A stretch of DNA of 64,000 bases from a virus (IMGVR_UViG_3300035034_002581); one strand, 5' to 3'; positions 2,213 to 28,147 are shown, counted from the first letter of the stretch. Program-made: numbers and translations. Notes: generated by a model from the sequence alone, not told the origin.

Positions 2213-2685
2213 TATATGATTTCCTGCTTAATGATTTGTGATGGGTTCCAGATAATCAGCGCCTTTCCGCCAGCCTCTCCTCTATTGTCATAAGCGATTG
2301 CATCGTACCCTAGTTCTTCTAGGAGATGTCCTAGCAAAATATTCTCGTGAGTCCTCATACTCCTTCCGTCTTCTTTTGCATTTTGGGATGCTTTTTTCTT
2401 AATGTCTATCACCTGCTGTCTAGGTAGGCGTAGTTCTCTCGCAATATTCTGCAAATCCCATCTCATAACATCAGGAAGCTCTAAAGGGCTGTCATAACGA
2501 AGTGTAACACGAAAGAGCCTAACAGGGGATCTATGTTGTGCAGACTCAGGTGTAAGTGCAAAATGAAAACCAAATTCTCCTGTCAGTTCTGGATCAAATT
2601 TCGAGAACTTTCTCGAAGTGCCATGGTAAGCTATTACTGTAGTCTCAGTAATCATCCGTCTAATAGCTTCTCTTAGGAGCATCAT
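2212..2685 (-). CDS. Small protein with a possible H-Y-E (diphtheria-toxin-like) ADP-ribosyltransferase signature
   Basis: This 157-aa ORF has an N-terminal IAYHGTSRKFSKFD segment (YHGT, as in diphtheria toxin and exotoxin A). It also has GFHFALTPE and a C-terminal GEAGGKALIIWN that resembles the catalytic-Glu region SVEYINNWE. The match is weak and rests on memory alone. Confidence 0.25.
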   Translation of the reverse strand: MMLLREAIRRMITETTVIAYHGTSRKFSKFDPELTGEFGFHFALTPESAQHRSPVRLFRVTLRYDSPLELPDVMRWDLQNIARELRLPRQQVIDIKKKASQNAKEDGRSMRTHENILLGHLLEELGYDAIAYDNRGEAGGKALIIWNPSQIIKQEII

Positions 2686-2690
2686 TTTAG

Positions 2691-3899: not shown

Positions 3900-3974
3900 G
3901 TAAAGGCTCCCAACTCGACATTAATACATATCGTGTCTAAGTCCTCACTTCTCTAACAATCAGCAATGTCGGCT

Positions 3975-4214
3975 TTATTTCCAGAATGAAGCAATAACCT
4001 CTAGGAAAGAAAGCTTAATAGCACCGGAGAAAGAATCAGCGCTCCCGACCCTCTTAAGCGCGAAGGCCCAAAAGTTACCATCATTTGTGCTGTTTAGAAA
4101 GAAGGGAATTTCTACAATGTATAGTTTTCCAGCTGTTGTCGTTAAGATTGATCTTGTCTTTGAATACAATTTGTCTGCCACAGCTTGTGTGTCGACATTA
4201 GTGCCCTCTCTCAA
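3975..4214 (-). CDS. Hypothetical small protein
   Basis: A 79-aa ORF fills the only gap in this region. Coding status is uncertain. Confidence 0.25.
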   Translation of the reverse strand: MREGTNVDTQAVADKLYSKTRSILTTTAGKLYIVEIPFFLNSTNDGNFWAFALKRVGSADSFSGAIKLSFLEVIASFWK

Positions 4215-4247
4215 AGACTCCGCAATATAGAGATCTAACTTGACATT

Positions 4248-4685
4248 TCATGCAGCATCAGTTGCGGGGACAAACCCAAGTCTCATTATCAATGGCCTTG
4301 ATGTGTCAATTCCAAATGGAAGCCCGAGAAGCTGGCCAACTCCATCTGTAGAGTTTCCTGCAAATTGATTGTTTTTAGCTCTAATTCGAATGTTTGCTGA
4401 GACTTGAACTGCGCCGTTTGCAGGTGCTGCAGAAACTAAGTCATCTACTGTAGATAGACTGACACTTGGGAATGCTCTTAGATCAACAACACGTCCGAAC
4501 TTTTCAAAAAATCCGTCACTGTTTATTTGAACTCTGCTTCTTCCTAGTTTTGTAAGACTAATAGTTGGTGAGGCAGTAATCGAAGAACTAACCTTAAGAC
4601 GCGCCCAGTATCCGTTGACACCATTAACTGTACCTGTAACATGCCCTGGAAGATCTGATTCAACACCGATAAGTATCCCGTTCAC
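4248..4685 (-). CDS. Hypothetical protein
   Basis: A 145-aa ORF. No motif. Confidence 0.35.
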   Translation of the reverse strand: MNGILIGVESDLPGHVTGTVNGVNGYWARLKVSSSITASPTISLTKLGRSRVQINSDGFFEKFGRVVDLRAFPSVSLSTVDDLVSAAPANGAVQVSANIRIRAKNNQFAGNSTDGVGQLLGLPFGIDTSRPLIMRLGFVPATDAA

Positions 4686-4731
4686 GTCATGACTGTCAAT
4701 AAACTAGAGAAACACATTTTGTAAAGGCAAA

Positions 4732-4799
4732 TATTGATGCGTTTTTAGTTATCTACCCTGATACAACCATAAGGGCAAGAAGGCAAAAACGCATCAATA
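4732..4799 (-). promoter_or_regulatory. Perfect 15-bp inverted repeat enclosing a 38-nt loop, just downstream of the methyltransferase stop codon. Putative terminator or regulatory hairpin.
   Basis: tattgatgcgttttt occupies 4732-4746 and aaaaacgcatcaata occupies 4785-4799. The pair lies in the 115-nt gap between CDS 4801..6870 and CDS 4248..4685. Confidence 0.35.
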
Positions 4800-4800
4800 A

Positions 4801-13602: not shown

Positions 13603-14492
13603 TACAAGCCCTCCTCTGTAATTGTACGATTGAGATGTGAAATCGTCAAGAACCTTGTGATTGTACTGTCGTCAATCTGGTCTGTTGATACACTCTTTAC
13701 GTCGTTAATAACTCTGTCTGCTTTTGCATTAAGAACTGCATTGTTTTCTCGAATCAAGTAGTCGCCAAGCGTCGTTAATGTATCTGTCCTTACGGATTCT
13801 AGCATTTCTCTAAGCTCAGACTTGTTTTCATTTTCACTTGATAGAACGTATGCACGAAGAATCTTTTTCTGATCTTCGTTAAGGGACGATTGATATTTCT
13901 TGTCAATCTTCTCAGACATGATTCGAATGACCAATTTGTCAGCGTCGGGATTTGTCATGTTTTCAATGTTAGGCTGTTGTACTTTTTCTTTGATTAGCCA
14001 TGTTCTAACCTTTTCTTCAAATTCAGCAATTCTAGTAAAGTTGCGACTTTCGTTTAGAGATCTCCAGTCATTTAAAAGAATTTGAATTGTCGCATACATT
14101 CTGTATTCTGGCAAATGCCTTTTATAGAATGTCTCTCGGATCAGATTGTGATTGACACTATGAATCAAGCTTGTCTTTTCAGATGATAGTTTCTTTTGAT
14201 CTATTGTCTGTGCGTATTCTCTAGCCTCTGAGAGGATTGTATTAGCTATTGACGGTGACGATGCTGTTGTCTTTACTAATGCATTGAATAGACGAAACTC
14301 CTTGTATAATTCAGAGCTTTTCTTAAAATGACGCTTGACAATTGACATTGCAACATCTGCTTCTTGCTGCTTATTTTCTACAATGCAGCTCGAGACATGC
14401 CTAAGAAGAAGCTCATAAATGATGCCAACATTTCTTTTTTTATTGTGCTTAATCATTAGTGTCTTCACTCTCCGTGTTATTACCCTCAGCAT
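13602..14492 (-). CDS. Hypothetical head assembly protein
   Basis: A 296-aa ORF between the portal and protease genes. No motif. Confidence 0.4.
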   Translation of the reverse strand: MLRVITRRVKTLMIKHNKKRNVGIIYELLLRHVSSCIVENKQQEADVAMSIVKRHFKKSSELYKEFRLFNALVKTTASSPSIANTILSEAREYAQTIDQKKLSSEKTSLIHSVNHNLIRETFYKRHLPEYRMYATIQILLNDWRSLNESRNFTRIAEFEEKVRTWLIKEKVQQPNIENMTNPDADKLVIRIMSEKIDKKYQSSLNEDQKKILRAYVLSSENENKSELREMLESVRTDTLTTLGDYLIRENNAVLNAKADRVINDVKSVSTDQIDDSTITRFLTISHLNRTITEEGL

Positions 14493-17400
14493 CAGATTCA
14501 GTAATAATACTTCGGGGCGCCTTCTTACTTATCTCTTTCTTAAGTGATTTTAACGTTGACTTTAGAGATAGTGATATTCTAGCTTGTTGTTTGACACTTC
14601 TATTGAGGAATGCGTCAAAAGGATCTTCTCTGCCGACAATCTCTTTCATCGGATCTATTTGATTAAGGCGATGTGTATCATAAGGATCTGTCAAAGAATC
14701 GCCAGGCCTCTCGTGATTTACCATACGCTTAAAATCAGGGATTCCTGTCTTTTCTGGGCCATGAGTCTTTCTTCTCTTTCTATTTTTAAGAACTTTGTCC
14801 AATTGAGCTTGTGCTTTAATTGGTGCATCGCCATCATTAATTGAGTAAGTAAACTCTTCATCAGTGTCATCGTCGTCTTCGTCTATTAGAGTAAGACCCT
14901 TTATGGTTTGTGATGCAAAGAGATCATCATCAAGATCTCCATCATCTTCATCTCCGCCAGCGTCTTCTCCATCGGCAGGTTCTTCACCTTCCTCGCCTGG
15001 CTCTCCTTCGCCTTCTTCTCCAAAATCTTCGCCGCCGCCGCCTAGGCCTCCAAATCCTCCTCCACCACCGCCAGAGAAATCGTCGGATTCACCGCTAGTT
15101 TCTTGCGAGATACCTTCAATCTTAAGATCGGATGTCTTATCGTCAACGCGACCCTTTTCGATACGATCGATTTCATCATCTGTGAGGTTCATGATATTCT
15201 TTCGAATCCAATATCTGTCAACAACACCCTCAGGAGCGGATCCTGCTATTTCAAGTCGTGTTCTGTAGATTTCAAGCTTCTGTTGCTGCGCAACAGTTGA
15301 TGGATTGCATAGATTAAGCTCAAAGTCTAGAAGATCTTCACCTTCGTATCCATTTGAGTACAAGTGTATAATCGCAAGTTTATTAAGCTCAGAGATGACA
15401 GTTCTTTGTATTCTGTTGATTGTTCTTGAGAATCGAATATCTTCTTGGCTTAGTGTTGCCTTTGATCCGATAGCTTCATCGTATCCCAAGTAAGCCTTAG
15501 GAATCTTTAGCGCAGAAAATAGCTTCTTCTGGATGTACTCAACATCTTCAATTGCAGTTACGTTTGTGCCACCTGCTAGAGTCTCTATTTTTGATCCTCC
15601 TTCTCCACCTCTAGTTGGAATGAAGTAATCCTCATCGACTGAATTCTTTACAAAGATACCAGACGGTAGAGTCGTTCTTCCCGATGATGGTGTTAAGTTT
15701 TTGTCCTGACGAACTAATCCTTCTAGTGAATTAAGAGTTGATTCCTTGGAACCTTCTTGAATAGTCTGCATTGCAAAGTTGTGTCTGTCGTCTTGACCGT
15801 CCGGACCCACTACGGTCATGCAATAGACATCTTCGTTTTTGTAGACTTCTTCAACTCTAGACACACTGTGATTCTTGTACTCAATCTCTCCTTCTGACAT
15901 AAGTGCTCTGAGCTCTGTCCAATTATTGCAAACACCATTTCGCTTGAATGCATTTATAATTGCAGCAGAGCTAAAAAGATCAGGATCTCGTCTATTTTCA
16001 CTGTTAGCAACAGCTAGATCTTCAATTAGCGTTTTGTTGTTTCTAATGGCTTCCGTGAGATTTTCTCTTGTTAGCCTTGGGTTTGTTTGAGCCTTATGAA
16101 TAGAAAACTCTACGATTGATGCAGGTATGTTCCATGACATGTTATTGCATCTATTACGACTGTGTATTTTATCATTCCAGTAGCTTGACTGAACCTTACT
16201 TCTGATTTCGTTATGTTGCTTGTGAAGTAGACTTCCATTGTACATTTTAGCCATGTTTTGGCCCTTGTTGTACTTCTTGTTATTCATTGAAACAAGATCG
16301 CGATGTGCCTGAGTTCTGTTTGCAGATGCATGATGTGCCTTGTGCTCGAACCATGTCATCGCCTGCAGATTTTCAGGTCTATTGTCCCACTTCTTATGAT
16401 TTACGTGATGGATCGTTTTGTTTTTAAGCTTTCTGTCGTGATCAATACACGCAGTTCTTGAAATTGCCTTGTGGGTATAAATAAACCTGCTTGTATGTGG
16501 ATCGTAGACCTGTTCGTAATCATCAACATAATCACCGTCAGATTTGTTACTTAGTCTTCTGTATAGCGGCATTAGTCGATCGCCCGCCGTAAGTTTATCA
16601 GCTCGCTTATTAGAACCATCCCTAAGTACAAACGGGTGCTCTGGTGCTGTCATGGCCCATGTATCATCATCAAGCCATACTTTAATTAACTTCTCTGCAG
16701 TATAGTTCTTACCACACCAAACTACTTTTCCTGGAACGATCCTCTGTGTATCGTCTTGAATTGAGTAAACCCAGTTTTCTTTACCTTCATCAAACTCTTT
16801 TGCAAGATCTTTGATAGTAATTGTTCTACCATCAAGTAGAGGAATTGGTGTCTTCGACCAGACAGGTAATGGGTTGTATCGTAAGTCGACTCTTCCTGTT
16901 TGACTGTCGACAACTTGGTTACTTCTTAGTATTGTCTTAGCTTGCTCCATGTAGTTAGGAACATCTTCTGGTGGCACATTTCCGACGTCAACGTAGAAGA
17001 CTCTTCGCTCTGGAGATCTAACAACTCTATAGACTAGCATAGCGTCTTCAATGAGTATTAGTTGTCGCCAAATTCTTCTTGCTGACTCTAAGACTGATGT
17101 ACCGTATGGCAAGAATGCATCATTACCCAGAAGCCTAAAGTGTGTGATCTGCCAGTTTTCGAGAATAGTGTTTCCGTTTGTGATCCACCTAAACCTTACA
17201 GCCATCGGATCTTGTGGATCGTACCCTTCTTCTCTTTCTATTTCGTTAACAGGAATTGGGAATACGTTAAGCACCCCATATTCTGGCGACACGTCATTAA
17301 ACAAGAAGAAATCGCCGTGTTTAACCATGTCTCTTGACCAGGGTGTCAAGTTGAATTCAACATTTAGTGTGTCGTAGAATAGCTCTTCGAGCAGTCTCTG

Positions 17401-17730
17401 AATCTGCCTGTTTTCAGAATAGACAGTTAGCACTCTACCTTTGTCATCGTTAGCAACAGTCTCTTCAGAGTAAATGTCGAGTGCACTTGCAATTTCTGGT
17501 GTGTACTCCATCTCTGCATAGTCACTATATCTTGACATTCTATCATAAGTGCCGTAAGCACTCATTGCTGTACTGTAACTTGTGCTCAGAGACTTCTTAA
17601 AAACTTGATTAGCTGACGAGACCGAAGGCTCTTTAAATGCTTTGACTTTTCTCTTAATGACTGGACCGCTTCGAAACAGCGTTGTGAGTCTCTGAAATAG
17701 ATTTTGATTATCTTCTTTGGCCACTTTCAA
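14449..17730 (-). CDS. Portal protein (gp20 family) interrupted by an intein of about 405 aa, with a Gly-rich/acidic C-terminal extension
   Basis: A 1093-aa ORF. LIEDAMLVYRVVRSPERRVFYVDVGNVPPEDVPNYMEQ aligns to T4 gp20 [37 protein letters not shown]. The downstream extein EDYFIPTRGGE...IETLAGGTNVTAIEDVEYIQKKLFSALKIPKAYLG aligns to EDYWLQRRDGK...[36 protein letters not shown], leaving an insertion of about 405 aa. Confidence 0.8.
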   Translation of the reverse strand: MKVAKEDNQNLFQRLTTLFRSGPVIKRKVKAFKEPSVSSANQVFKKSLSTSYSTAMSAYGTYDRMSRYSDYAEMEYTPEIASALDIYSEETVANDDKGRVLTVYSENRQIQRLLEELFYDTLNVEFNLTPWSRDMVKHGDFFLFNDVSPEYGVLNVFPIPVNEIEREEGYDPQDPMAVRFRWITNGNTILENWQITHFRLLGNDAFLPYGTSVLESARRIWRQLILIEDAMLVYRVVRSPERRVFYVDVGNVPPEDVPNYMEQAKTILRSNQVVDSQTGRVDLRYNPLPVWSKTPIPLLDGRTITIKDLAKEFDEGKENWVYSIQDDTQRIVPGKVVWCGKNYTAEKLIKVWLDDDTWAMTAPEHPFVLRDGSNKRADKLTAGDRLMPLYRRLSNKSDGDYVDDYEQVYDPHTSRFIYTHKAISRTACIDHDRKLKNKTIHHVNHKKWDNRPENLQAMTWFEHKAHHASANRTQAHRDLVSMNNKKYNKGQNMAKMYNGSLLHKQHNEIRSKVQSSYWNDKIHSRNRCNNMSWNIPASIVEFSIHKAQTNPRLTRENLTEAIRNNKTLIEDLAVANSENRRDPDLFSSAAIINAFKRNGVCNNWTELRALMSEGEIEYKNHSVSRVEEVYKNEDVYCMTVVGPDGQDDRHNFAMQTIQEGSKESTLNSLEGLVRQDKNLTPSSGRTTLPSGIFVKNSVDEDYFIPTRGGEGGSKIETLAGGTNVTAIEDVEYIQKKLFSALKIPKAYLGYDEAIGSKATLSQEDIRFSRTINRIQRTVISELNKLAIIHLYSNGYEGEDLLDFELNLCNPSTVAQQQKLEIYRTRLEIAGSAPEGVVDRYWIRKNIMNLTDDEIDRIEKGRVDDKTSDLKIEGISQETSGESDDFSGGGGGGFGGLGGGGEDFGEEGEGEPGEEGEEPADGEDAGGDEDDGDLDDDLFASQTIKGLTLIDEDDDDTDEEFTYSINDGDAPIKAQAQLDKVLKNRKRRKTHGPEKTGIPDFKRMVNHERPGDSLTDPYDTHRLNQIDPMKEIVGREDPFDAFLNRSVKQQARISLSLKSTLKSLKKEISKKAPRSIITESDAEGNNTESEDTND
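15643..16857 (-). mobile_element. Intein with an HNH homing endonuclease domain inside the portal gene
   Basis: Hint block A-like SIQDDTQRIV / LLDGRTITIKDL and block B TAPEHPF are present. The HNH motif IHHVNHKKWDNRPENLQAMTWFEHKAHH sits at nt 16330-16413. Block F is DVYCMTVV...RHNF. The C-terminus GIFVKN is followed by Ser+1 (SVDEDYF). The boundaries are accurate only to a few residues. Confidence 0.6.
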
Positions 17731-18319
17731 TTTCCTTTATGAAGCTTGAAACTTCACTTTGAGGCATGTCACCTAAGTCTTTGTAGGGTTCTGGTGTAAT
17801 ATAGGACTCACTAGCAAATCTGCCGAGTTTCTTTCCTACTTCACTCTCATCGTTGTCTAAAATTGCAATAATTTTCATACTAAGTGAATACAGCCAGTTT
17901 GTAAGGTGTTTTGGATTATTTGTAAAGACAGCAAGTACTGCTTTTCCTAAGTTTGCAATTTTAATTGCATCAAAGATTCCCTCTACAATATACACTGTCT
18001 GTGTAGAAGGTGTAATAGTTTCCAGCCCCCAAACACCAATCTTCTTGCCCTTCCCTTCGTCTCCTAAGAAGGTAAAATAGCGTCCAGCTTTAGGATCATT
18101 GTTTTGTGATTTAGAAGCACCAGGCCTATATTGTTGATATCCAACTAGTTGACCCGAAGAATTGTAAAGCAAGAAAGCTGCTGTGTTTTCTTCTTCACTA
18201 ACTATTACACGTGTCTTGCTAGTATCGACGCCTCTTTCTTTAAGATTGTCAGAAACACTTATTGACTCAAGAGTAATCTTTATAAGTTCTCTCAACATAG
18301 TGCTACCTCTTTTTATCAA
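17708..18319 (-). CDS. Stand-alone Toprim-domain protein
   Basis: A 203-aa ORF. YIVEGIFDAIKI is the Toprim Glu motif and IIAILDNDESEVGKK is the DxD motif. There is no zinc finger and no helicase domain. Confidence 0.45.
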   Translation of the reverse strand: MIKRGSTMLRELIKITLESISVSDNLKERGVDTSKTRVIVSEEENTAAFLLYNSSGQLVGYQQYRPGASKSQNNDPKAGRYFTFLGDEGKGKKIGVWGLETITPSTQTVYIVEGIFDAIKIANLGKAVLAVFTNNPKHLTNWLYSLSMKIIAILDNDESEVGKKLGRFASESYITPEPYKDLGDMPQSEVSSFIKEIESGQRR

Positions 18320-19928
18320 GAAGCCATCTAAGATCAGATACTGCGCCTGTCTCTCGTCTCGTCTTCTTGTTCATTCCAACAAAACTATTTCCTGATGGCT
18401 GAATTGGCATAAATGGATTTACTTGCTTTATTCCGGAGCCTTTAATTGCAGGTTGCTTAAACTCTTTGTTTGTAGTGCTCATTCCTGCCAGCATTGCCAT
18501 ATTTTCTGCTACACTGTTTTGGCTATATCCGCCTACCGAATCATATAACCAGACTCCGATCGCCATTGCCATTACTAGGTCATCATTCCTGCCTTTCATG
18601 GCTTGTGCTTTTTCATGATGCCAGACAAAGGTCTTTAGCTCATCAGCAAATCGAGTAGAATAACAGCGTATCGTTTTGTTTCTTATGACCTCTTCAAGCT
18701 TTGCAAGTACGCGGTTTCTTGAAGCTCCGTTAGTATTAAACCCAGCCTTTGAAAGCTCTTGTGGTGGTGTATACCCGCCAATAAATACAGCTTTGTTTGA
18801 TTGATAGTACATATTGTTGTACCCGAGCTCCTTAAGCTTCATACAAACTGCGTATCCGTATGAGTTGTTTTCGGGACAAACTAGGGCTGAATTGTACTTT
18901 TCGCCGTATTCAGATAGCAATTCTGCCAAACTGTCGGGTCGTATCTTTCCTTTATACTCTGCTGCAACTTCACCTTCAGTTACATCGAGAACTACAAATG
19001 TAGAGAAATCTTTAGAGTCACCTCGAGATACGTCAGCTGCAATAACATACTTGTGCCTGGACAATGGCATTTTCCATATCCAGACGTTGTTCGCAGGGCC
19101 AGTCCTTCTAATTGGTGGCATTGTCGTTCCTGCAATCCACTTTACTTCGCCTGCACTTAGAAAGGTATCACCAGATGCAAGGAAGTCGCACAAGAACTCT
19201 TGAGCAATTTTGCGTTCACTAAAGTTTGCAGTTTGTGATTCAAACCACTCCTGATCACGTTCTGGTTGCACGTCCCATGGAAGCTTAATAGCATTAAACT
19301 CATTGAGTCCTGCTTCTGCTTTGGAGTAAATATCGTGATAGGTCCCACCAACACCATTAGGTGTTGACAAAATAATCGCTCGTCCACCTGTTGAAAGTGT
19401 AGGATACAAAGCAGTCCAGAGATCTTCAAAATTTCTAATGAATGCTGCTTCGTCAATGATTAGAAGTGATAGTGCTTCTGAACGGCCGGCATCATCAGAC
19501 GTTGGAACGGCTTTAATTGTTGAACCGTTGGCGAACTCTACTTCCTGCCTGTTGTTCGTTACTATATTAACAAAGAACAGCCATCTTGGCAAGTTATTAA
19601 GTACAACCTTGACTTTTTTAATGATGTTCTGAGCAACAGCTTTCTTTGTAGCGATGATCAGTATGTTTTGATCTTTGTGAAACAGTGCAAGCCACACAGC
19701 ATAGGCAGCAGAAAGCGTCGATATTCCCAACTGTCTTGACTTCAGTATAACATTGAACTTATGATCAATGAAATCTTGGACACAGTCGTCTTGGAATGGG
19801 AAAGTCTCAAACGGAATAACACCCTTAAGTGGGTGCTGGATCTTACAGTAGTTGTTAAAGAAGTAGACTGGATCTTTGCCGCACTTGATTATCTCTTTTA
19901 CTTGGCGCTGTGTAGTGCCACTCGCCAT
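18303..19928 (-). CDS. Terminase large subunit (gp17 family)
   Basis: A 541-aa ORF. Walker A is LKSRQLGIST (compare T4 gp17 SRQLGKT). Walker B is LLIIDEAAF. A C-terminal RNase-H-like nuclease region is present. Confidence 0.8.
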   Translation of the reverse strand: MASGTTQRQVKEIIKCGKDPVYFFNNYCKIQHPLKGVIPFETFPFQDDCVQDFIDHKFNVILKSRQLGISTLSAAYAVWLALFHKDQNILIIATKKAVAQNIIKKVKVVLNNLPRWLFFVNIVTNNRQEVEFANGSTIKAVPTSDDAGRSEALSLLIIDEAAFIRNFEDLWTALYPTLSTGGRAIILSTPNGVGGTYHDIYSKAEAGLNEFNAIKLPWDVQPERDQEWFESQTANFSERKIAQEFLCDFLASGDTFLSAGEVKWIAGTTMPPIRRTGPANNVWIWKMPLSRHKYVIAADVSRGDSKDFSTFVVLDVTEGEVAAEYKGKIRPDSLAELLSEYGEKYNSALVCPENNSYGYAVCMKLKELGYNNMYYQSNKAVFIGGYTPPQELSKAGFNTNGASRNRVLAKLEEVIRNKTIRCYSTRFADELKTFVWHHEKAQAMKGRNDDLVMAMAIGVWLYDSVGGYSQNSVAENMAMLAGMSTTNKEFKQPAIKGSGIKQVNPFMPIQPSGNSFVGMNKKTRRETGAVSDLRWLLDKKR

Positions 19929-20350
19929 TATTTCACTTCGTGCATTGATGTGAATCTAAAGAGCACAGTTCTTTTTGGCGATACGTGTCCTTGTAGGCTT
20001 ATTACTTCTACAGAATGATCGTGACTCACCTTTGTTGTTCTGAGCGTTTTTCCGCATCCATCCTTGTATTCGTCCTTGATAAACGTCAAATACTTGTTAG
20101 ATGCCTTCTGTCCTTCGTCTACGAGTCTTGGAATCTGTTGGCTCATTGCAACGTTGGAGGCAAATGTTGCGATAGTTGTAAATATCACAGTCAACACATC
20201 TCCTTGAAGCTTACCCTTCATTGACATCGTTGGAGATCCCATCGTTGAAGATCTTCCCCAAGTTGTATCAAGGACTTGGCCCAAGCAATTTACTTCTTTT
20301 GTTGATAACACAATACTCTCCCGAAATAGAGTTACACCATTAACTATCAC
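19928..20350 (-). CDS. Hypothetical protein, terminase small subunit candidate by position only
   Basis: A 140-aa ORF that ends 1 nt upstream of the TerL ATG. Confidence 0.25.
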   Translation of the reverse strand: MIVNGVTLFRESIVLSTKEVNCLGQVLDTTWGRSSTMGSPTMSMKGKLQGDVLTVIFTTIATFASNVAMSQQIPRLVDEGQKASNKYLTFIKDEYKDGCGKTLRTTKVSHDHSVEVISLQGHVSPKRTVLFRFTSMHEVK

Positions 20351-20366
20351 TCAGCGTACAAGACTT

Positions 20367-20675
20367 CTATATTGAAAGCTTGGGCACTCTACAAAGACGT
20401 GTAGCAATCTCGTCAGTTACTTGCTCTTCAGATGGTCGCCATCCCGCAATCCAATCAGCTTTTCTACTTTCAGCCCATCTAAGTGTGCACAAATGACAAC
20501 ACCCATAAGCCTTAAACGAATGATTATCATCCGCAGTTCTCATGGGAAACTCACAAACACTGCAAGAAAACGGGACAGCGTCAGACTCTGTATCTGGTTT
20601 AATTACAAAAAAAAGATCGGGGTGACTCATGAGGAGTCTGCCCCGACCAATGTTTTTCCACTCTTGTTCTAACAT
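20367..20675 (-). CDS. Hypothetical Cys-rich (zinc-binding?) protein
   Basis: A 102-aa ORF with CSVC...YGCCHLC. Confidence 0.35.
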   Translation of the reverse strand: MLEQEWKNIGRGRLLMSHPDLFFVIKPDTESDAVPFSCSVCEFPMRTADDNHSFKAYGCCHLCTLRWAESRKADWIAGWRPSEEQVTDEIATRLCRVPKLSI

Positions 20676-20713
20676 GCAGCAACATCCTGTTACTACATTT
20701 TAAGTCTTACGTG

Positions 20714-23700
20714 TTATTCGTAAACAACCTTGGCATCCTTTCCTTCCCATGTGATGTCAATAACATTGTCTACAACATCCTTGACTCCGTCAACATGAGT
20801 AATGATAATGATGTTCTTGAACCACTTTTTGAGAGAGACTAGAAGCCTATTGCATGCCTCTACGTTTACATCATCTAGAGAACCAAACCCCTCGTCAATA
20901 ATTAGCATGTCTGTTTTAGGAAGAGAAGAGATGTTGATTAACGCAACACGAATGGCGAGAGAAGAGATCATCTTTTCCATTCCAGATGCTACTTCAATGA
21001 CCCTCTTGCTGTCGCCGTAGTTAATATAGACATCCATTGAGTTTGAATTTGGATCTGCTTCAAGCTCAACTGTAAACGAAACAACGCCTTGAAGAATTTT
21101 AGAAACTTCAGCATTAATAACTGGCAATTGAGACATGATTATCTGAAGAGGGAGACCTCGCTTAGAGACAGCCTGAATGAAGTATTCATAGATTCTCCAC
21201 TTCTGCTTAAGTTTTTGATACTTGGATTTCTCACTCTTAAGATTTTGTAGTGTGACTTCAAGCCGTCCAATTGAACTTGCACACGATATTCTCTTTGCAT
21301 CCTTTGACGAGATTAAACTTTTCTCTTCGTAGAGTCTTGCCTTTAAATTATTAAGCTCTTGATCAATGTCACTGTCAACCATTTTAGACTTAAGATCTTC
21401 TAGATCTTGCTCACTCTGTGTGATTTTGCTTTCAAGGCTTTCAATGTCTCTTTTGATTGACTTAGCATTGCTTTGATTTTGCGTCAATTCAATTTTAAGT
21501 GTTGACTCCATTCGCATGATCTTTTCGTACTTATCAATCTTGTCTTCAAGGTCTTCACTCATGACTTGATCAAACTGTTCTTGAGCATTTTCAATATGCT
21601 CAAGAAGTGCCTTAATCTTCTCTTCTTGTGCTTCTATTTTTTGCTTATCTTTGTGGGAGTCCTTGATGAACTTGCACATTGGAAAAGAGTCACCACAGGG
21701 TACGTCCTTAAGCTTTGCAACAGATCTTAACTGTGACTTAAGGAGGGTTTGTTCTTTTTCATGAGAGTGCTTGATTTGTACTAGAGACGCACCTAGTGCT
21801 CTTTGATTTTTAAGTGATGCTTTAAGATCTTCAATAGAAGTAGACTCTTTGACTTCTTGGATCTTCTTGATTTTGACTTCTAGATTTTCAATTTTCTCAA
21901 AGATTGCATTTCGTCTAGTGATAAGGTTTTCTAGACTCTTCTTTGCAGAATCTGTAAGTGTCTGCTGTCTTTCAACATCAGCACACGTTACAACATCAGC
22001 GTTTTCAAACTTGCTTAGTTTAATCTGCAGTTTCTGTTCATCGAGTCTCATTTCAGAGAGTTCATCTTCGATACTGTTAACTCTACTCGACAAATCCTTG
22101 ATTTCATTTTTTGCTTCGTGAATCAATGAATCCCAATCACGATCTGGTGCAGATTTAACTTTAGTCTGTATCTCTCTTGACTCTTCTTTTGCAAGATTAA
22201 ACAGATTTTCAAATATGTCAAGGCCCAAAAACCTTGTAAGCATGTGCTTTCTAGCAGTGCTACGCTGCTTGATAAATGCGTTTATCTCACCCTGTGATGC
22301 GAGTGAAGTTAGCAAGAAATCATCTGATGTGCCGAACTTTTCACGCAGATCCCTTTCAGTTACACGCCTCTGCTCTTTACTTAAATCAGCAAGCTCATTT
22401 CCATTGTTATCAATCTTAAAGATATTGAGATGTGTTAAAGCCGATTCGTGACCCTTTGCGTTCTTGTTTTTGACAGACTGTCTCTCAACCCTAAGCAGGT
22501 TTTCACCTTGCTGTATTGTTGCCTTAGCACGGCAATAGTCTTTTCTGGTATTGATTACGTGTAGGTTTTTAATAGGACCACGATCTGTTGTGTTAAACAG
22601 ACAGTACATTAATGCACCTACAATTGATGACTTACCTCGAGCATTTCTACCAAAGATTCCCGTTATGCCATTCATTGAGTCAAAGTCAATGACGTTTCCC
22701 TTGCCATAAGAGAAAGTGTTATCAAACTCAAGTTTCTTAACTGACCACTTATGATTTCTTGACAACGAACCTGATCGTGATATTGACTTGACATAACTTC
22801 TCGTTAGTGCCTCAAGATCGTTCCAGTCTTTCTCAGAGAGCGATGACTCTTTAAAATACTCTTCAAGTAGGTTGACAATCACATCGGGATCTTTGAGATC
22901 GTTCTTAAAGAGAGTAACAGCCTCAGTTGAAATTTGTTGTGTATCTACAAGTCGTTCATCCTTAGATACAACTTCTGATGGTGCTTTTAGAATTTCTAGT
23001 TCATTACACAGTTGCTTCCACTCAACTGACGGGATCGATTCTTTTGTGCGTATCCTGACTCTTGAGCCGTCTTTAAGATCTTTGAGTGCCTTAAGTGTTT
23101 TCTGGACATTCCCTTCCCAGTTTACTGTAACAAACGGCTTAGGGCCTTCGACTTTATGAAAGTTAACATCAAAGTCATCTTTGTCCCTAATATCCCAAAG
23201 CAGATACCCTTTGTTTGTATCCTCTCCGTAGTTTTGCTGAACTGTGCTTCCACAGTAAGCAACTGTCTTCTTTGGGTTAAGAAACTGGACTTTGTGGATG
23301 TCACCGAGTAGAGCAAAATCGAATCTTTCAAAGAAGTTTACGTCAACTTCTCCTTCAATATGCCAGTCAATATCAGTAGTTGAACCAAGCACTCCACCGT
23401 GAAATAGTGCTATGTTAATGTCCCCAGGTTTTGGGCGGACTTTACTCCAATTATCTTCATCGAAGCAAGAAAAAACGTTCCAGCTGAACCCTGGAATACC
23501 TATTGGATACGTTCCTGACTCTTTATAGAGTTTGATATTTGGATGGCTAAGTGCTGTGATAATCGGAGTGATTGTGTCTTGGCGATCTTTGTTTAGTAGA
23601 ATACCATCGTGATTTCCAAGAATGACTTCTGTTGGAGCAATATTTGCAAAGCCTGTAAACATCCATACAAGTGCATCAATAAGCTCTGGAGAGATTCCTT

Positions 23701-23881
23701 GAGTTTTGCTATGAACAATATCGCCGCCAATGTAAATGATATCGGGTTTTTGTTCACGAAGCATTTCAAAAATCTTACTAAAGACTTCACGATACTCTTT
23801 GTGTCGTGTCAATCCACGCCAGTGTATGTCTGCAAAGTGTGCAATCCTGACATTTTTCTTTTCGCTCTTCATGTTTGTCAC
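20714..23881 (-). CDS. Fused Mre11-like nuclease / Rad50-like ATPase (SbcD-SbcC, gp47-gp46 equivalents in a single polypeptide)
   Basis: A 1055-aa ORF. The N-terminal calcineurin-like phosphoesterase motifs are FADIHW, GGDIVH, GNHDG, ALFHGG and GDIHK. It then has the Rad50 Walker A GIFGRNARGKSSIVGAL, a coiled-coil region of about 400 aa with a central PCGDSFPMC Cys pair (a possible zinc hook), the signature/Walker B SSLAIRVAL...MLIIDEGFGSLD, and the H-loop IIIITHVDG. Confidence 0.75.
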   Translation of the reverse strand: MTNMKSEKKNVRIAHFADIHWRGLTRHKEYREVFSKIFEMLREQKPDIIYIGGDIVHSKTQGISPELIDALVWMFTGFANIAPTEVILGNHDGILLNKDRQDTITPIITALSHPNIKLYKESGTYPIGIPGFSWNVFSCFDEDNWSKVRPKPGDINIALFHGGVLGSTTDIDWHIEGEVDVNFFERFDFALLGDIHKVQFLNPKKTVAYCGSTVQQNYGEDTNKGYLLWDIRDKDDFDVNFHKVEGPKPFVTVNWEGNVQKTLKALKDLKDGSRVRIRTKESIPSVEWKQLCNELEILKAPSEVVSKDERLVDTQQISTEAVTLFKNDLKDPDVIVNLLEEYFKESSLSEKDWNDLEALTRSYVKSISRSGSLSRNHKWSVKKLEFDNTFSYGKGNVIDFDSMNGITGIFGRNARGKSSIVGALMYCLFNTTDRGPIKNLHVINTRKDYCRAKATIQQGENLLRVERQSVKNKNAKGHESALTHLNIFKIDNNGNELADLSKEQRRVTERDLREKFGTSDDFLLTSLASQGEINAFIKQRSTARKHMLTRFLGLDIFENLFNLAKEESREIQTKVKSAPDRDWDSLIHEAKNEIKDLSSRVNSIEDELSEMRLDEQKLQIKLSKFENADVVTCADVERQQTLTDSAKKSLENLITRRNAIFEKIENLEVKIKKIQEVKESTSIEDLKASLKNQRALGASLVQIKHSHEKEQTLLKSQLRSVAKLKDVPCGDSFPMCKFIKDSHKDKQKIEAQEEKIKALLEHIENAQEQFDQVMSEDLEDKIDKYEKIMRMESTLKIELTQNQSNAKSIKRDIESLESKITQSEQDLEDLKSKMVDSDIDQELNNLKARLYEEKSLISSKDAKRISCASSIGRLEVTLQNLKSEKSKYQKLKQKWRIYEYFIQAVSKRGLPLQIIMSQLPVINAEVSKILQGVVSFTVELEADPNSNSMDVYINYGDSKRVIEVASGMEKMISSLAIRVALINISSLPKTDMLIIDEGFGSLDDVNVEACNRLLVSLKKWFKNIIIITHVDGVKDVVDNVIDITWEGKDAKVVYE

Positions 23882-23917
23882 GCCTTTAGTTTAGATCTTA
23901 TACTGTCAAAGACAGTT

Positions 23918-24931
23918 TTATAATGCTGCTCTTGTAGTGGGAGACATGTTCATTATCTTTTCACGAATTGCATCCATTCTCTGCCACTGCTTTGCATTAC
24001 TTCTTGCTTCTAAGAATTCTTTGTGAGACATCTCGCCTACATCACCAAATTTTCCAAGGTCGAGTAATCTAACATTGATAGCGTAGCTATTTAGCAGTTT
24101 TGCAAATTTGTTTGCTTTTTTCTTAGCATCTGCGTCTAGGGCAAGGAGCACATCAGTTTTATTTTTAACTAGCTTCCAAAACAAAATGTAGTCTTCTGTT
24201 AGGCCGCTTCCTTGTATGCATGTTGAGTTAGTGTTGCATTTAACCAAATCAAATGGCCCTTCGACAATTGTTAGTTCTTTTGACCAGTCTATGTTACACT
24301 CATTGAATACAAGCTCTACTTTACCTACTGGTGGCAAAACATAGGGCGGCCAAGATTTTCTATCAATAGCACGCGCTGTATAGTAATTGATAAACCCGTC
24401 TTTGTCAAAAGAAGGCATGATAACTCTTCTGTGAAACTTGCTCGCACGTGAAACACCGAGCTTGTAATACCAGAGGTCTCGCTCTCTTACTCCTCGTCGT
24501 TTAAGGTATCGAAGTGTATCTTGGATATCAGGTACTCTTGAGTTTATCAAAGTTGCCAGCATTCTAAAGTCTTCGGGGAAGTCAAGCAAAACTTCATTGT
24601 CAGTGCTTTCATCTCTTTTTTCGCCGAATAGATTTGAATCATTCTTGCGTCGAGCCTGCTTAGGTAGGTACTTTTCAATGTAATCTTGAATCTGATCATT
24701 TGTGCAGACACGCCTTAGTACAGGAACTAAGTTTGAATGTGTTTTAAGTTCACACACCCAGCAGTGAGCCTGATCTGTGTCGATTCGAATTGACAGTTTT
24801 TTCTTTCCGTCAATTCTACTTTTGCATTTTTTATTTGGGCAACGAACAGCAATGTTAACGCCGTCTCGTGCGACATCAGCACCCTTAAACACACGGCGCA
24901 AGAATGCTATTTTTTTGTCATTTGAATGCAT
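23918..24931 (-). CDS. DNA primase (zinc-finger plus Toprim, gp61/DnaG-like)
   Basis: A 337-aa ORF. The zinc finger is CPNKKC...HCWVC. Toprim is TIVEGPFDLVKC and LLALDADAKKKA. Confidence 0.6.
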   Translation of the reverse strand: MHSNDKKIAFLRRVFKGADVARDGVNIAVRCPNKKCKSRIDGKKKLSIRIDTDQAHCWVCELKTHSNLVPVLRRVCTNDQIQDYIEKYLPKQARRKNDSNLFGEKRDESTDNEVLLDFPEDFRMLATLINSRVPDIQDTLRYLKRRGVRERDLWYYKLGVSRASKFHRRVIMPSFDKDGFINYYTARAIDRKSWPPYVLPPVGKVELVFNECNIDWSKELTIVEGPFDLVKCNTNSTCIQGSGLTEDYILFWKLVKNKTDVLLALDADAKKKANKFAKLLNSYAINVRLLDLGKFGDVGEMSHKEFLEARSNAKQWQRMDAIREKIMNMSPTTRAAL

Positions 24932-24966
24932 GATGTATTATAACGAGTTACATTCAAATCTATAAA

Positions 24967-25239
24967 TTACCAGATCTTCTTTGATCTCTTCATTCTACGA
25001 TGCCCTCCGACGCCGCCCTTGTAGCGTCGCGGTCTGCCACCATATCCACCATAGCTGTCGCCGTCCATATTGTCTAGTGACTTTCCATAACGGGCTAAGC
25101 ATGCTTCGTATTCTTTTTGAGTAAGTCCGCCTGCCTCATAGTCTCTTCGACAATCAGAAGCTTCTTCGTCAAGTGGCTCGATTGATTTTTCAATCTCTTC
25201 TTTAATAATACGCTTTAGCTGTGAAAGTTTGATCTTCAT
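24967..25239 (-). CDS. Hypothetical small protein with an RGG/GY-rich basic C-terminus
   Basis: The likely start is the internal Met (MKIKLSQLKR). The C-terminus reads GGYGGRPRRYKGGVGGHRRMKRSKK. Confidence 0.35.
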   Translation of the reverse strand: MKIKLSQLKRIIKEEIEKSIEPLDEEASDCRRDYEAGGLTQKEYEACLARYGKSLDNMDGDSYGGYGGRPRRYKGGVGGHRRMKRSKKIW

Positions 25240-25268
25240 GTGTAAACTCCTGTCTCTACATATCTTGG

Positions 25269-25832
25269 TCACGAAGAAATAGTTTTCAATCCTGCCTTTG
25301 CCATAACATAAGCATCTGCCATGTCTCCACATTCGACAATCTTTACTACCATCCCCTTTCTTGGTCCTCGGCTAATTACTTTCGTAGGCCAAAATTCATC
25401 AGGAAGCTCTTTGATGATCCACTCAAAAACCTTCTCTTTAGTTGTCTTTGACTTATCTTTTTTATTGTAAGTGCAACCAATTAGCTTTCTTGCTGTGTTT
25501 ACGTTTATGAGTTGCGGCTCCATGTCAAGCTCATCATATACAATTAGTGATGCCATGCCGTTAAACCTTGAAAGCTTTCGAATGACTTTTGCAGATGAAA
25601 ACCCCTTTCTAAATCGCTGGAGATCTTCTTCAATAAAAACATCAGTAATGTCGTTAGCGCTGATGATTTCTTTTAATGCAACCCGAAATTCTGCAGCCTT
25701 CTGGTAGAGATTTTCAAGCTTCCCTAATGGTATGTAACCCATTTCTAAGGAAAAGCCATCATGGGTCATTGTGCACCACCCTATTGTGGTCGTAGATATA
25801 TCTAGTCCTAATACTTTCTTAGCCATCACCAA
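25269..25832 (-). CDS. RuvC-like Holliday junction resolvase
   Basis: A 187-aa ORF. LGLDISTTTIGW (compare RuvC LGIDPG), FIEED and ECGDMADAYVMAKAG (compare the RuvC DAADA region) match the RuvC catalytic-site patterns. Confidence 0.7.
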   Translation of the reverse strand: MVMAKKVLGLDISTTTIGWCTMTHDGFSLEMGYIPLGKLENLYQKAAEFRVALKEIISANDITDVFIEEDLQRFRKGFSSAKVIRKLSRFNGMASLIVYDELDMEPQLINVNTARKLIGCTYNKKDKSKTTKEKVFEWIIKELPDEFWPTKVISRGPRKGMVVKIVECGDMADAYVMAKAGLKTISS

Positions 25833-28147
25833 TCCATCTTAATTTTGAACATAACCTTGTCTGCGCTTCGCTTAACAATAGGTTGAGCGAGATTCGTTCG
25901 TGCGACAACGTTTAGATTCTCATCATGGATCGCGATGTTAGTAATGTAAACAAATTCGCTGTCTTCATCATTGGCGTTAAGTGATGCTGAGAGATGCTTG
26001 TATGATGGGTTTGACGACGAATTTATCATTGAGGCTTGTGAAGTTACATTAACTTTTGATACAAAGATCGATCTTTCTCCGTTAAACTCTACTTCAAATG
26101 AGTCTTTTCCAAAAAAGCTAAGATGCGGAGACTTAATAAAGACAATTCCCTCATTGTAGAAGATATTCCCTACGCTGTTCCATGATGCATTTGTACCCGA
26201 TGCGTTGTGACGATACAGTGAGCCGTCACCATTGTCTCTTAGTTCTATCTGGACGCTTTCACTTGATCCCGACAGTGAGTTATCCCTAATAGTTAGAGAA
26301 CCAGGTTTGATTCGTTTTCCGTAAAACAAAGACGGTATATTGAATATTGTTACTTGATTTGAACTTGAGTCTCTCGTCCTTTGAAATACGGTCGGGACAG
26401 CGCCTACGACAACTGTCGGATCTTCAGGTGATGCTCCGTAAATATTATCTTCTAACTGACCAGAAACAGCAGTCTGCAGCACATCATCGCTAATAAAGTT
26501 TCGCAAGCTAATCTTTTTAAAGTCAGTCACTCCAAGATCTGATCTGAATCTCTCTGTTGGTGAACCTGATACGAAAAGGGCTGTTTCACTTCCTGACTTT
26601 AATAGCTTGAAGTTTGGTGTGAACCTTCCGTTGTCACATGGAAGAATTGTCAGATTCCTTTTAGCGAAGGCAGGATCAGAGTATAGTCGATCTGTTGTAC
26701 TCAGTGAAGTTTGTGTATGAAGTGTTCCTGTCAAGTTGTATTGTCGTGGATATGCAGATCTTGCAAAGTCTCTAGTAAAATTGTCTATATTTATCTCATG
26801 TCCTCCAACTTGAAAAGCAAGGCCGACATTAAATGGCGCAGCCGATTCGGATTCTCTTTTTTCAAATTGTGTAATGTACCTGTCTCTACTCGGAGATTCT
26901 CTGGTAAAGAACACAGGCACGTAAAAGAGCATTCCGCTTACAGACTCTTGACCTTGAATCGATGATGTCAAGATCTGGCTAATTGTTCTGTAGCTGTTAA
27001 ATACTTTGACGTCATGCATTTCTGCGTTGAGAGGATGAGAAAAAGAAAATCCAGATGGATCTGCTGATCCTGAAGTGAGAAGTTCGAGTCCTTCTCTACT
27101 ATTTACAATCGCATTAAAGAATCGCTCAGGTGTACTGCTGGGTGGTGCCGTGTAATAATTTCCCAAATACAACTGTGATGATGATGTGTCTTTAATTGAT
27201 GCAGACGGTACATTAAATTCACCTTTAATAACACTGTCAATAACAAATGAACCGGTCCCTTCGTTATAATCTTTTGTCCCCCATCGAGCAACAACGTTGT
27301 GCCAGGTGTCTCGTGAAAGAACATTGTCTGACGACAAAAAGACAAGATCTTCGGGATAAGTTCTGTCATTGTTACTTACAGTCAGATCTATTGAAGAAGG
27401 CTCTATGTCTGCACTATGGGACAACTGCAACATAACACGAAATGATTCAGGGTTTCCGTTCTTATCTTTTCTTGAACCAGAAACTATTGACAATGCAAAT
27501 GTAGAAGAAACATGCATTATTGTACCTGCATGGAACTCTTGATCTTTGTCAAAGAACTTGGGAGAAGGTTTAATTTGGAGATCAAGTGAGAATGCTCCTG
27601 ATGGGTGATAGTAACGCTTGGTTGTGTCACCCTCAGTTGCGCCTGGGTATATCAAGACGGTGTCTTCAGGCACACTTGATGCTGTGAAGAAGTTAAGTGA
27701 ACTATAGTTTGTATAGCTAAAGTCCATGTCTTGATATCTTGTTGAATAAAACGGCATCAAAGTATTGACAATGGCCATCTTTTTTAAATGGTTCTTGTTA
27801 ACTGTCAAGCCGGGAGTAACCCTACTTATAGCTAGCGACGCGTTTTGCCTTGTAGATAACGATTCACTACTTACAGCGTCGAGATAGTCCTGGACTTTTT
27901 CAGATAATTCTCCGCTGCTAGCATTTTTTGCAGAGATTAACTCTATCTCGACGCCTACTGTTTCGTCAAAAGAAGAAAGCCCACCGGAGAAGTAAGTAGA
28001 AGTTTCTTTGACAATCCTGTTCTCTCTAGCGAAAAGATTGACATCTCCAGTTGATCCATCTAAAGAAGATGAAGCAAAAACTCGCTTTGGATTTGTGACA
28101 AGATTAAAATTCTCAAACTTATCTTTTGTCAGCTTTACTATTGACAT
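25826..28147 (-). CDS. Large virion structural protein. Its C-terminal domain is paralogous to the next gene.
   Basis: A 773-aa ORF. Its C-terminus YITNIAIHDENLNVVARTNLAQPIVKRSADKVMFKIKMDW is clearly homologous to the C-terminus of CDS 28185..29420. Confidence 0.5.
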   Translation of the reverse strand: MSIVKLTKDKFENFNLVTNPKRVFASSSLDGSTGDVNLFARENRIVKETSTYFSGGLSSFDETVGVEIELISAKNASSGELSEKVQDYLDAVSSESLSTRQNASLAISRVTPGLTVNKNHLKKMAIVNTLMPFYSTRYQDMDFSYTNYSSLNFFTASSVPEDTVLIYPGATEGDTTKRYYHPSGAFSLDLQIKPSPKFFDKDQEFHAGTIMHVSSTFALSIVSGSRKDKNGNPESFRVMLQLSHSADIEPSSIDLTVSNNDRTYPEDLVFLSSDNVLSRDTWHNVVARWGTKDYNEGTGSFVIDSVIKGEFNVPSASIKDTSSSQLYLGNYYTAPPSSTPERFFNAIVNSREGLELLTSGSADPSGFSFSHPLNAEMHDVKVFNSYRTISQILTSSIQGQESVSGMLFYVPVFFTRESPSRDRYITQFEKRESESAAPFNVGLAFQVGGHEINIDNFTRDFARSAYPRQYNLTGTLHTQTSLSTTDRLYSDPAFAKRNLTILPCDNGRFTPNFKLLKSGSETALFVSGSPTERFRSDLGVTDFKKISLRNFISDDVLQTAVSGQLEDNIYGASPEDPTVVVGAVPTVFQRTRDSSSNQVTIFNIPSLFYGKRIKPGSLTIRDNSLSGSSESVQIELRDNGDGSLYRHNASGTNASWNSVGNIFYNEGIVFIKSPHLSFFGKDSFEVEFNGERSIFVSKVNVTSQASMINSSSNPSYKHLSASLNANDEDSEFVYITNIAIHDENLNVVARTNLAQPIVKRSADKVMFKIKMDW

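Follow-up and report, generated by a model that had tools for sequence, protein, structure and literature searches.

A predicted single-chain Mre11-Rad50 enzyme in an uncultured marine phage with T4-type morphogenesis genes

Results

Domain Organization of the Fused Protein

The gene described here lies on the viral sequence IMGVR_UViG_3300035034_002581, which was analyzed over a stretch of 64,000 nucleotides (nt), hereafter termed the window. This DNA belongs to a tailed phage whose morphogenesis genes are of T4 type. On the minus strand, positions 20714..23881 were listed as a single open reading frame (ORF) of 1055 codons plus stop with a GTG start and zero internal stops, and its translation combines motifs of the nuclease Mre11 (SbcD) with those of the ATPase Rad50 (SbcC). 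An earlier note on this DNA had described Mre11 and Rad50 as encoded in one polypeptide of 1055 amino acids (aa) with the nuclease in the N-terminal position. In complete agreement with this description, the ORF is uninterrupted and its junction is conserved without gaps in 118 relatives (see below), and the features that the note had named, i.e., five phosphoesterase motifs followed in frame by Walker A, coiled coil, signature/Walker B and H-loop, were all located in the translation (Table 1). An AlphaFold2 model built on 118 homologues reached a mean pLDDT of 81.8 and has the order nuclease domain, capping domain, two helices, Rad50 N-lobe, antiparallel arms and C-lobe.

With regard to the start codon, a Shine-Dalgarno-like element (AAAGG) is located 1 nt before the GTG and 10 nt before an in-frame ATG at 23872, three codons later. 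Since this spacing suits the ATG and homologue alignments begin at about query residue 12, the true product is probably a protein of 1052 aa starting at ATG 23872. A perfect 6-bp hairpin (ACTGTC-TTT-GACAGT on the coding strand) is present at 23902-23916, between the stop codon of the preceding primase gene and the ribosome-binding site of the fusion gene.

The N-terminal half contains the motif set of calcineurin-like phosphoesterases (DxH, GDxx[DH], GNH[DE], H, GHxH) with one deviation, the presence of D194 in place of the first His of motif V, and is matched by Pfam Metallophos on residues 12-197 with 49.6 bits (cutoff 21.5). For the analysis of conservation and of the junction, 118 full-length relatives with 49-68% identity were aligned. 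In this alignment D18/H20, D54/H57, N90/H91, H161 and H196 are invariant or nearly so. Comparison of the N-terminal 380 residues with Mre11 from Thermotoga maritima yielded two aligned blocks, 22-93 and 187-346, the second of which corresponds to residues 203-356 of the T. maritima protein (phmmer) and covers the Y-x-G-S...G-E segment that follows motif V as well as the capping domain, reaching into the first part of the Rad50-binding helices.

In the Rad50 half, G411-S418, Q530, S966-G967, D996-E997, D1003 and H1029 are invariant among the 118 sequences. Pfam AAA_23 matches residues 383-608 with 55.2 bits (cutoff 27), PHROG 77 ("SbcC-like subunit of palindrome specific endonuclease") matches residues 257-1054 with an E value of 3e-57, and sequence matches in the PDB comprise only Rad50, SbcC, Mre11 and SbcD chains plus two SMC heads. 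Between the two lobes the model predicts two antiparallel helical arms of about 170 residues each with pLDDT values mostly between 70 and 92. A lack of Rad50 similarity in the C-terminal 650 aa had been put forward as a possible argument against a fusion; this part is matched by AAA_23, by PHROG 77 and by Rad50/SbcC chains of the PDB. In the profile comparison that had been suggested, Metallophos and AAA_23 thus scored above the Pfam cutoffs, and the NCBIfam models for sbcc, sbcd, Rad50 and Mre11 matched below theirs.

Table 1. Features of the fusion gene, its neighbors in the window, and split loci in relatives.
Feature	Position	Strand	Motifs, evidence or remarks
Whole ORF, predicted single-chain Mre11-Rad50	20714..23881	-	Stop codon 20714-20716; translation, domain profiles, full-length relatives
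Probable true start codon ATG, M4 of the listed ORF	23870..23872	-	AAAGG spacing, homologue start
Mre11/SbcD phosphoesterase (nuclease) domain, residues 11-221	23219..23851	-	Motif I D18-x-H20; II G53-D54-I-V-H57; III G89-N90-H91-D92; IV H161; V G193-D194-I-H196; Y209-x-G211-S212...G219-E220 strand and loop
Mre11 capping domain, residues 222-330	22892..23218	-	Five strands and two helices in model
Junction, residues 331-377	22751..22891	-	Conserved helices 332-342 and 350-369, then tether of about 8 residues ending R375-N-x-K-W379-S
Rad50 ATPase N-lobe, residues 378-554	22220..22750	-	Walker A G411-RNAR-G416-K417-S418; Q-loop Q530
Ascending coiled-coil arm, residues 555-725	21707..22219	-	Model helices 555-577, 583-623, 633-680, 683-725
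Apex loop, residues 726-736, putative non-canonical zinc hook	21674..21706	-	C729-G-D-S-F-P-M-C736; Cys conservation
Descending coiled-coil arm, residues 737-905	21167..21673	-	Model helices 737-774, 778-832, 841-905
Rad50 ATPase C-lobe, residues 906-1055	20717..21166	-	Signature S966-G-M-E-K970; Walker B MLII-D996-E997; D-loop D1003; H-loop H1029
DnaG-type primase, 337 aa, upstream neighbor	23918..24931	-	PHROG 47 at 1.5e-18; synteny in L004-L007, L009; similar to SPO1 gp21.95
RuvC-like Holliday-junction resolvase, 187 aa, upstream of primase	25269..25832	-	PHROG 159 at 4e-12; synteny in L004, L005
Cys-rich ORF of about 100 aa directly downstream of fusion	20367..20675	-	34-38% identity to ORF at same position in L004, L006, L007
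Second small ORF between fusion and TerL	19928-20350	-	Candidate small terminase subunit
Split loci in relatives	L003 1295-5459; L006 1145-4392; L007 3351-6577; L008 893-4119; L009 (LR756508.1) 2027-6252

Conservation of the Fusion and Its Junction

A search of a set of 5.8 billion proteins returned 3951 matches at E ≤ 1e-5. The best 120 of these all comprise 1015-1061 aa, share 49-68% identity with the query at 97-100% query coverage and stem from independent ENA, JGI, Tara, Logan and NCBI assemblies; a Metallophos match is on record in nearly all of them, and JGI already annotates some as "SbcCD ATPase subunit/SbcCD nuclease subunit." Throughout the alignment of 118 relatives the catalytic residues of the two halves vary little or not at all. 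Residues 329-380, which span the junction, are free of gaps apart from one 1-residue indel and share a conserved pattern (L338, W353, L359, Y363 and R375-N-x-K-W379-S). The two junction helices are situated where Mre11 has its Rad50-binding helix-loop-helix (HLH), and for the first of them a weak alignment with the beginning of the T. maritima HLH was obtained. A second Mre11 or Rad50 was not found when the 64-kb window was searched by tblastn.

An exhaustive search of 1.84 billion cluster representatives yielded 2036 at E ≤ 1e-30, and full-length fusions account for 112 of the best 150 of these (50% clusters, ≤50% mutual identity). The statement of the earlier note that such fusions are uncommon therefore applies to model systems alone. 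The architecture has been in print since 2011 (see below), occurs in mimivirids and Tenacibaculum phages and dominates the family of 2036 representatives. Among the uncultured marine phages of this very large family a fused protein is the rule, and the fusion is thus real, but not new. Full-length homologues were also encountered on contigs binned into metagenome-assembled genomes of "Candidatus Bathyarchaeota," "Candidatus Poribacteria" and "Halobacteriovorax" (P0008, P0022 and P0050); because of their phage synteny these are probably mis-binned phage contigs.

Relation to Known Mre11-Rad50 Systems

Fusion of Mre11 and Rad50 was described by Yoshida, Claverie and Ogata for the Mimivirus protein R555 (Virol J 8:427, 2011; PMC3175470), together with twelve further fusions including those of Bacillus phage 0305phi8-36, plasmids of Clostridium kluyveri and Deferribacter and several protists. 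The same authors reported 249 Global Ocean Sampling (GOS) scaffolds with close R555 homologues beside phage primase/endonuclease-like genes and assigned them to aquatic viruses; in their supplement, the best hits of the neighboring ORFs are SPO1 gp21.95, proteins of Twort, G1 and A511, and RuvC. As peculiarities of R555 they noted a His that ends motif II (GDxxH) and an Asp that replaces His206 of Pyrococcus furiosus Mre11. They further calculated that 9-12 extended residues bridge the 28 Å gap in the T. maritima complex, and they viewed the fusions as polyphyletic (Yoshida et al., 2011).

The fusion architecture has hence been known since 2011, and the locus studied here fits the published description. 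Like R555, the protein has the same domain order in one polypeptide, conserved across independent genomes, and both peculiarities recur (GDIVH57 and GD194IH196), of which only the Asp of motif V discriminates the R555 type, since GDxxH is also found in T. maritima Mre11. The neighbors agree with those of the GOS homologues as well: the primase likewise matches SPO1 gp21.95 and is preceded by a RuvC-like gene. On the other hand, the protein is about 300 residues shorter than R555 (1351 aa), and its gene belongs to a tailed phage whose morphogenesis genes are of T4 type and not to a giant virus. Full-length fused proteins of mimivirids constitute the top viral structural matches in the BFVD, led by a Tupanvirus protein of 1379 aa (E 1.6e-55, 22% identity) and further including Yasminevirus, Harvfovirus, Catovirus, Klosneuvirus and Megavirus; other algal giant viruses also match. 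Identity to the mimivirid proteins is nevertheless only about 20% in the structure-based alignment.

Among cultured phages, the Tenacibaculum jumbo phages pT24 and PTm1 encode a fused "DNA repair exonuclease" of 1310 and 1318 aa, respectively, that aligns structurally over its full length (more than 1300 columns, E 1.8e-45 and 8.4e-43). These proteins are longer, share 15-17% identity with the one studied here and belong to different phage lineages. The fusion of Bacillus phage 0305phi8-36 lacks one P-loop segment and the capping/HLH region (Yoshida et al., 2011).

T4 gp47/gp46 and the corresponding pairs of Herelleviridae (SPO1, K, A511) provide both activities as well; their nuclease gene precedes the ATPase gene, which it overlaps or abuts, and their coiled coil is likewise of the short phage type. 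In Herelleviridae an association with a DnaG-type primase is found as well. They consist, however, of two polypeptides, and identity to the Herelleviridae pair is 21-23% across the whole length. T4-like records were absent from the organism tally at E ≤ 1e-5, in which 3 entries are unnamed. In the T4-like phage 31, gp47 precedes gp46 with a 4-nt overlap, colinear with the fusion, and the order nuclease-then-ATPase is also that of Herelleviridae and bacterial sbcDC. As separate pairs are colinear and often overlap, a small deletion would suffice to create a fusion.

Listeria phage LMTA-57 (KJ591605.1, 3995-7024) was considered as a further cultured example and rejected, as phage LMSP-25 is identical bar one extra A and has two genes. 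The two-gene arrangement is also present in A511, P100 and about 50 other Pecentumvirus records, and the 1009-aa "recombination exonuclease" of LMTA-57 is probably due to a homopolymer sequencing error in an A-run at gene position 1046. This likely error has been carried into UniProt and BFVD as A0A068CB47.

All catalytic motifs and the Y-x-G-S...G-E segment are shared with Escherichia coli SbcCD and with Mre11-Rad50 from T. maritima, P. furiosus and M. jannaschii. Compared with these cellular enzymes, the phage protein has a covalent link that replaces or adds to the HLH tether, a C-x6-C instead of a CxxC apex and GDIH instead of GHIH in motif V, and it stays below the NCBIfam family cutoffs. 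A plasmid collection searched for the fusions of C. kluyveri and Deferribacter gave no full-length match, only colinear sbcD-sbcC operons, an outcome that fits the polyphyletic origin favored by Yoshida et al. (2011).

The Apex of the Coiled Coil

A central Cys pair had been predicted and is indeed present (C729/C736), albeit with C-x6-C spacing and not as the canonical CxxC, which does not occur anywhere in the 1055-aa protein. Both cysteines are invariant in the 118 closer relatives, and the pattern CGDx[FY]PxC recurs in almost all of 149 listed representatives that are more distant, down to about 33% identity; a mid-coil CxxC was found in none of these 149. The distant relative LR756508 has CEYC at the equivalent relative position, and the C-x6-C loop is for this reason probably a derived zinc hook.

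Split Variants and Inteins

Proteins of about 860 aa that begin near residue 200 make up 21 of the best 150 representatives. In three of the related loci (L006, L007 and L008) a Metallophos ORF of about 217 aa precedes, its stop codon overlapping the start of the ORF for the protein of about 860 aa (TAATG or ATGA); across the split loci (Table 1) the nuclease core comprises about 217-243 aa. The small product carries an acidic tail of about 30 residues, and the large one, which consists of capping domain plus Rad50, has a basic head. The break point is located just after motif V and not at the boundary between Mre11 and Rad50, so that the capping domain is still fused to Rad50 in the split phages. 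In L003 and LR756508 (L009) a Cys-rich ORF is situated between the halves, and because that of LR756508 contains a TnsA-like endonuclease domain, the split site is suggested to be an insertion site of mobile endonucleases.

In a neighbor-joining tree with 113 fused sequences the split forms are scattered: 15 stand alone and others form 3 pairs, which gives 18 separate all-split groups within the in-group. As this is a simple distance tree without support values and recombination is likely, no direction of change between split and fused forms is claimed.

Inteins with Intein_splicing and LAGLIDADG domains occur in the relatives P0201, P0205, P0211 and P0250 (1400-1779 aa). The insertion sites are located behind motif III (GNHD) and within the Walker A region (P-loop), and P0211 has inteins at both. 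The apex loop, the split variant and the inteins are details that go beyond the paper of Yoshida et al. (2011), in which hook motif and split variants are not discussed.

Genomic Setting

The structural genes of the window comprise those for a Gp23 capsid protein, a Portal_T4 portal, large terminase (TerL), prohead protease, baseplate wedge proteins and a sheath-associated protein. The fusion gene belongs to a small island for DNA metabolism (RuvC-like resolvase, DnaG-type primase, fusion) that is followed by two small conserved ORFs, TerL and T4-type portal, and the same block order is found on related metagenomic contigs, one of them 322 kb in size, and in the published 484-kb uncultured phage LR756508. 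Primase and RuvC-like neighbors are present in all loci examined, and relatives of the protein stem from marine sources (Tara, JGI, ENA). TerL is about 40% identical to its counterparts in Microcystis phage Mel-JY01, Flavobacterium "immuto" phages and LR756508. At the DNA level, a near-identity search with 15 kb of the window against 50,697 phage records gave no match; a close relative in culture is not known.

Both small ORFs between fusion and TerL keep their position and sequence in all related loci (30-43% identity), and neither has a Pfam or PHROG match. The first shows the pattern CxxC...CCxxC...GWRP and overlaps the stop codon of the fusion in L004 and L007; one may speculate that its product assists the fusion protein as an accessory factor. 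The second ORF may encode a small terminase subunit. A scan of 19800-25900 for promoters and terminators gave numbers near the shuffle expectation (16 vs. 13.2 promoter-like and 7 vs. 4.0 terminator-like sites).

Discussion

Proposed Mechanism and Biological Role

Based on the intact reading frame, the domain folds, the conservation of the motifs and of the fusion itself across the family and the synteny of the locus, we consider the ORF to encode a natural single-chain Mre11-Rad50 (SbcDC-type) enzyme of an uncultured marine phage whose head, portal and baseplate genes are of T4 type. For this reading, including the mechanism and the phage role proposed in the following, we estimate a probability of roughly 85%.

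The individual steps are modeled on two-subunit enzymes, i.e., E. coli SbcCD, archaeal and T. maritima Mre11-Rad50 and T4 gp46/47. Two chains would pair via their N-terminal Mre11 nuclease domains and via ATP-dependent engagement of the Rad50 heads, such that Walker A of one chain would face the signature motif of the other and the homodimer would be equivalent to the M2R2 heterotetramer. The arms of about 170 residues, roughly 25 nm in length, would be closed at the tip by the C729/C736 loop, probably around a shared zinc ion. Binding and hydrolysis of ATP would clamp DNA ends between the arms and pass them to a Mn-dependent nuclease site, which would trim the ends and open hairpins. The covalent path would lead from the capping domain through the two conserved helices and a tether of about 8 residues to strand beta-1 of Rad50. 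In this way the helices 332-369 and the tether of fixed length may replace or reinforce the non-covalent contact between the Mre11 HLH and the Rad50 coiled coil and would thereby set a 1:1 stoichiometry. The fixed length of the tether fits the estimate of 9-12 residues (Yoshida et al., 2011).

With the primase and the RuvC-like resolvase as neighbors and by analogy to T4 gp46/47, the enzyme is proposed to generate recombinogenic ends for recombination-dependent replication and double-strand-break repair, possibly with an added role in the degradation of host DNA.

Several observations weigh against this interpretation. In the Rad50 half, Pfam SbcC_Walker_B on residues 958-1015 remains sub-threshold (20.7 vs. 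a cutoff of 27), and the NCBIfam scores are far below the curated cutoffs, with 85.9 vs. 478.5 bits for TIGR00618 sbcc, 67.2 vs. 700 for the Rad50 equivalog, 28.9 vs. 77.65 for TIGR00619 sbcd and 23.6 vs. 550 for NF041030 Mre11_Halo. Judged by these scores, the protein is a distant homologue and no equivalog of cellular SbcC, SbcD, Rad50 and Mre11. Motif V carries Asp194 where archaeal and bacterial Mre11 have His, the hook departs from the canonical CxxC and zinc-mediated dimerization at the apex is an assumption. A RecA/UvsX-type recombinase was not seen in the window, but this stretch covers just a part of the genome, whose full size may be several times greater. In the literature beyond the 2011 description no biochemical or structural work on any natural fusion was found.

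Alternative Explanations

The alternative that fares best, although we regard it as unlikely, retains the enzyme and assigns it another main role, namely the degradation of host DNA or the processing of concatemers or hairpin ends before packaging instead of recombination-dependent replication. T4 gp46/47 is also required for the breakdown of host DNA. The gene is located directly upstream of the two small ORFs and the large terminase, within an otherwise structural/packaging block, and the lack of a recombinase in the window points in the same direction. Yet the gene equally adjoins the primase and the RuvC-like resolvase, the roles are not mutually exclusive, and the inspected portion of the genome amounts to 64 kb.

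Much less probable is a Lamassu-like conflict system acting against competing elements or host defenses, in which an LmuB-type SMC protein would carry a fused effector nuclease. LmuB shares the Rad50-like head, the coiled coil and a Cys apex with the phage protein; the PADLOC LmuB model PDLC03859 matches residues 378-1046 (E 3.5e-34), and LmuB structures are among the Foldseek matches (E 1e-11). LmuB and Rad50 are close relatives, and a resemblance to the capping and Rad50-binding region of Mre11 is seen in some LmuC proteins (bioRxiv 2025.03.14.643221). This reading was rejected on three grounds. LmuB, which acts together with the effector LmuA and usually with LmuC, has a Glu-to-Gln exchange in Walker B (bioRxiv 2025.03.14.643221), whereas D996-E997 is invariant here. 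Instead of an LmuA- or LmuC-like neighbor, the flanks hold primase, RuvC-like resolvase, the two small conserved ORFs and terminase in a block conserved throughout the lineage. Catalytic motifs and capping domain are both present in the N-terminal half, which thus amounts to a complete Mre11. In addition, Rad50 and SbcC outrank LmuB in the structural comparison, and the SbcC-like PHROG 77 gives the better profile match (3e-57). The inteins at catalytic motifs point to a strongly conserved gene, which in itself is no evidence against a role in defense.

That adjacent Mre11-like and Rad50-like genes were merged by an indel during sequencing or assembly is conceivable in principle, as abutting or overlapping genes in this order are the rule in T4-like phages, Herelleviridae and bacteria and the two genes of LMSP-25 differ from the LMTA-57 "fusion" by one A, but with relatives of uniform length from independent samples, full-length fusions in most of the best 150 representatives of ≤50% mutual identity, a conserved junction that varies by no more than one residue and a domain boundary devoid of relic stop/start codons or an intergenic spacer, the family-wide conservation leads us to consider a frameshift or assembly artifact, which the earlier note had wanted to see checked, as excluded.

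Implications of the Single-Chain Architecture

For the single-chain Mre11-Rad50 enzyme proposed here, the basic picture of the fusion remains unchanged because its architecture has already been published; the unusual hook, the split variants and the genomic context do add something to it. The "aquatic virus" homologues of R555 reported in 2011 gain such a context from the window, with head, portal and baseplate genes of T4 type and contigs of up to 322 kb.

A natural single chain fixes the stoichiometry, and neither co-expression nor tethering of two subunits is required. At about 120 kDa the protein is compact, it is well conserved and it has hundreds of homologues, features that render it convenient for structural and single-molecule work on ATP-driven motion of heads and coiled coils in relation to nuclease access. 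The family also offers variants absent from engineered constructs: a tether of fixed length, a different Cys spacing in the hook and a separate nuclease core next to a capping domain fused to Rad50.

Going further, we tentatively put forward a scenario that at present appears possible but doubtful: the lineage may be the hitherto unrecognized source of the abundant marine "R555-like" sequences of 2011, in which capping domain and Rad50 would form the constant covalent unit, while the nuclease core would have been repeatedly detached and re-attached just after motif V, at a site also used by a TnsA-like mobile endonuclease gene, and the derived C-x6-C apex would perhaps close the arms differently from CxxC. 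If the lineage were indeed this source, the giant-virus fusion gene would be tied to T4-like jumbo phages.

Other Features of the Window

A number of further genes, all on the minus strand, deserve mention. The T4-type portal (14449-17730) is enlarged to 1093 aa by an intein that includes an HNH endonuclease (Intein_splicing, residues 296-642); an intein is also found in the portal of L003, and the L004 portal, which lacks it, comprises 690 aa. Located between TerL and the portal, a primase/Toprim-like ORF of 203 aa (17708-18319; PHROG 849, 2e-32) is distinct from the 337-aa primase at 23918-24931 and may represent a split or second primase module; at the counterpart position L003 has an ORF of 191 aa and L004 none.

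The Gp23-type major capsid protein (6993-8918) comprises 641 aa. As its best Gp23 stretch is confined to residues 350-631 and PHROG 138 matches in two stretches, the N-terminal half appears to hold an extension or insertion. Between the genes for capsid and head-tail adaptor, an ORF of 689 aa (4801-6870) shows weak PHROG matches to homing/HNH endonucleases in its N-terminal and to DNA methyltransferases in its C-terminal part, and no Pfam match; one possibility is a mobile element that resides in the structural module.

In the region 25826-48422, between the RuvC-like gene and the baseplate wedge genes, a series of eleven ORFs (240 to 1310 aa) is without a PHROG match at E ≤ 0.001; these presumably encode tail fiber or baseplate proteins of a poorly sampled lineage. 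Finally, a cluster for sugar modification extends over 54061-63901 and comprises genes for four glycosyltransferases, two nucleotide-sugar epimerases and a UDP-glucose dehydrogenase. A gene for a PD-(D/E)XK (Cas4-like) nuclease at 56539-57393 interrupts this cluster, which may constitute an auxiliary metabolic or a surface/DNA-modification module.

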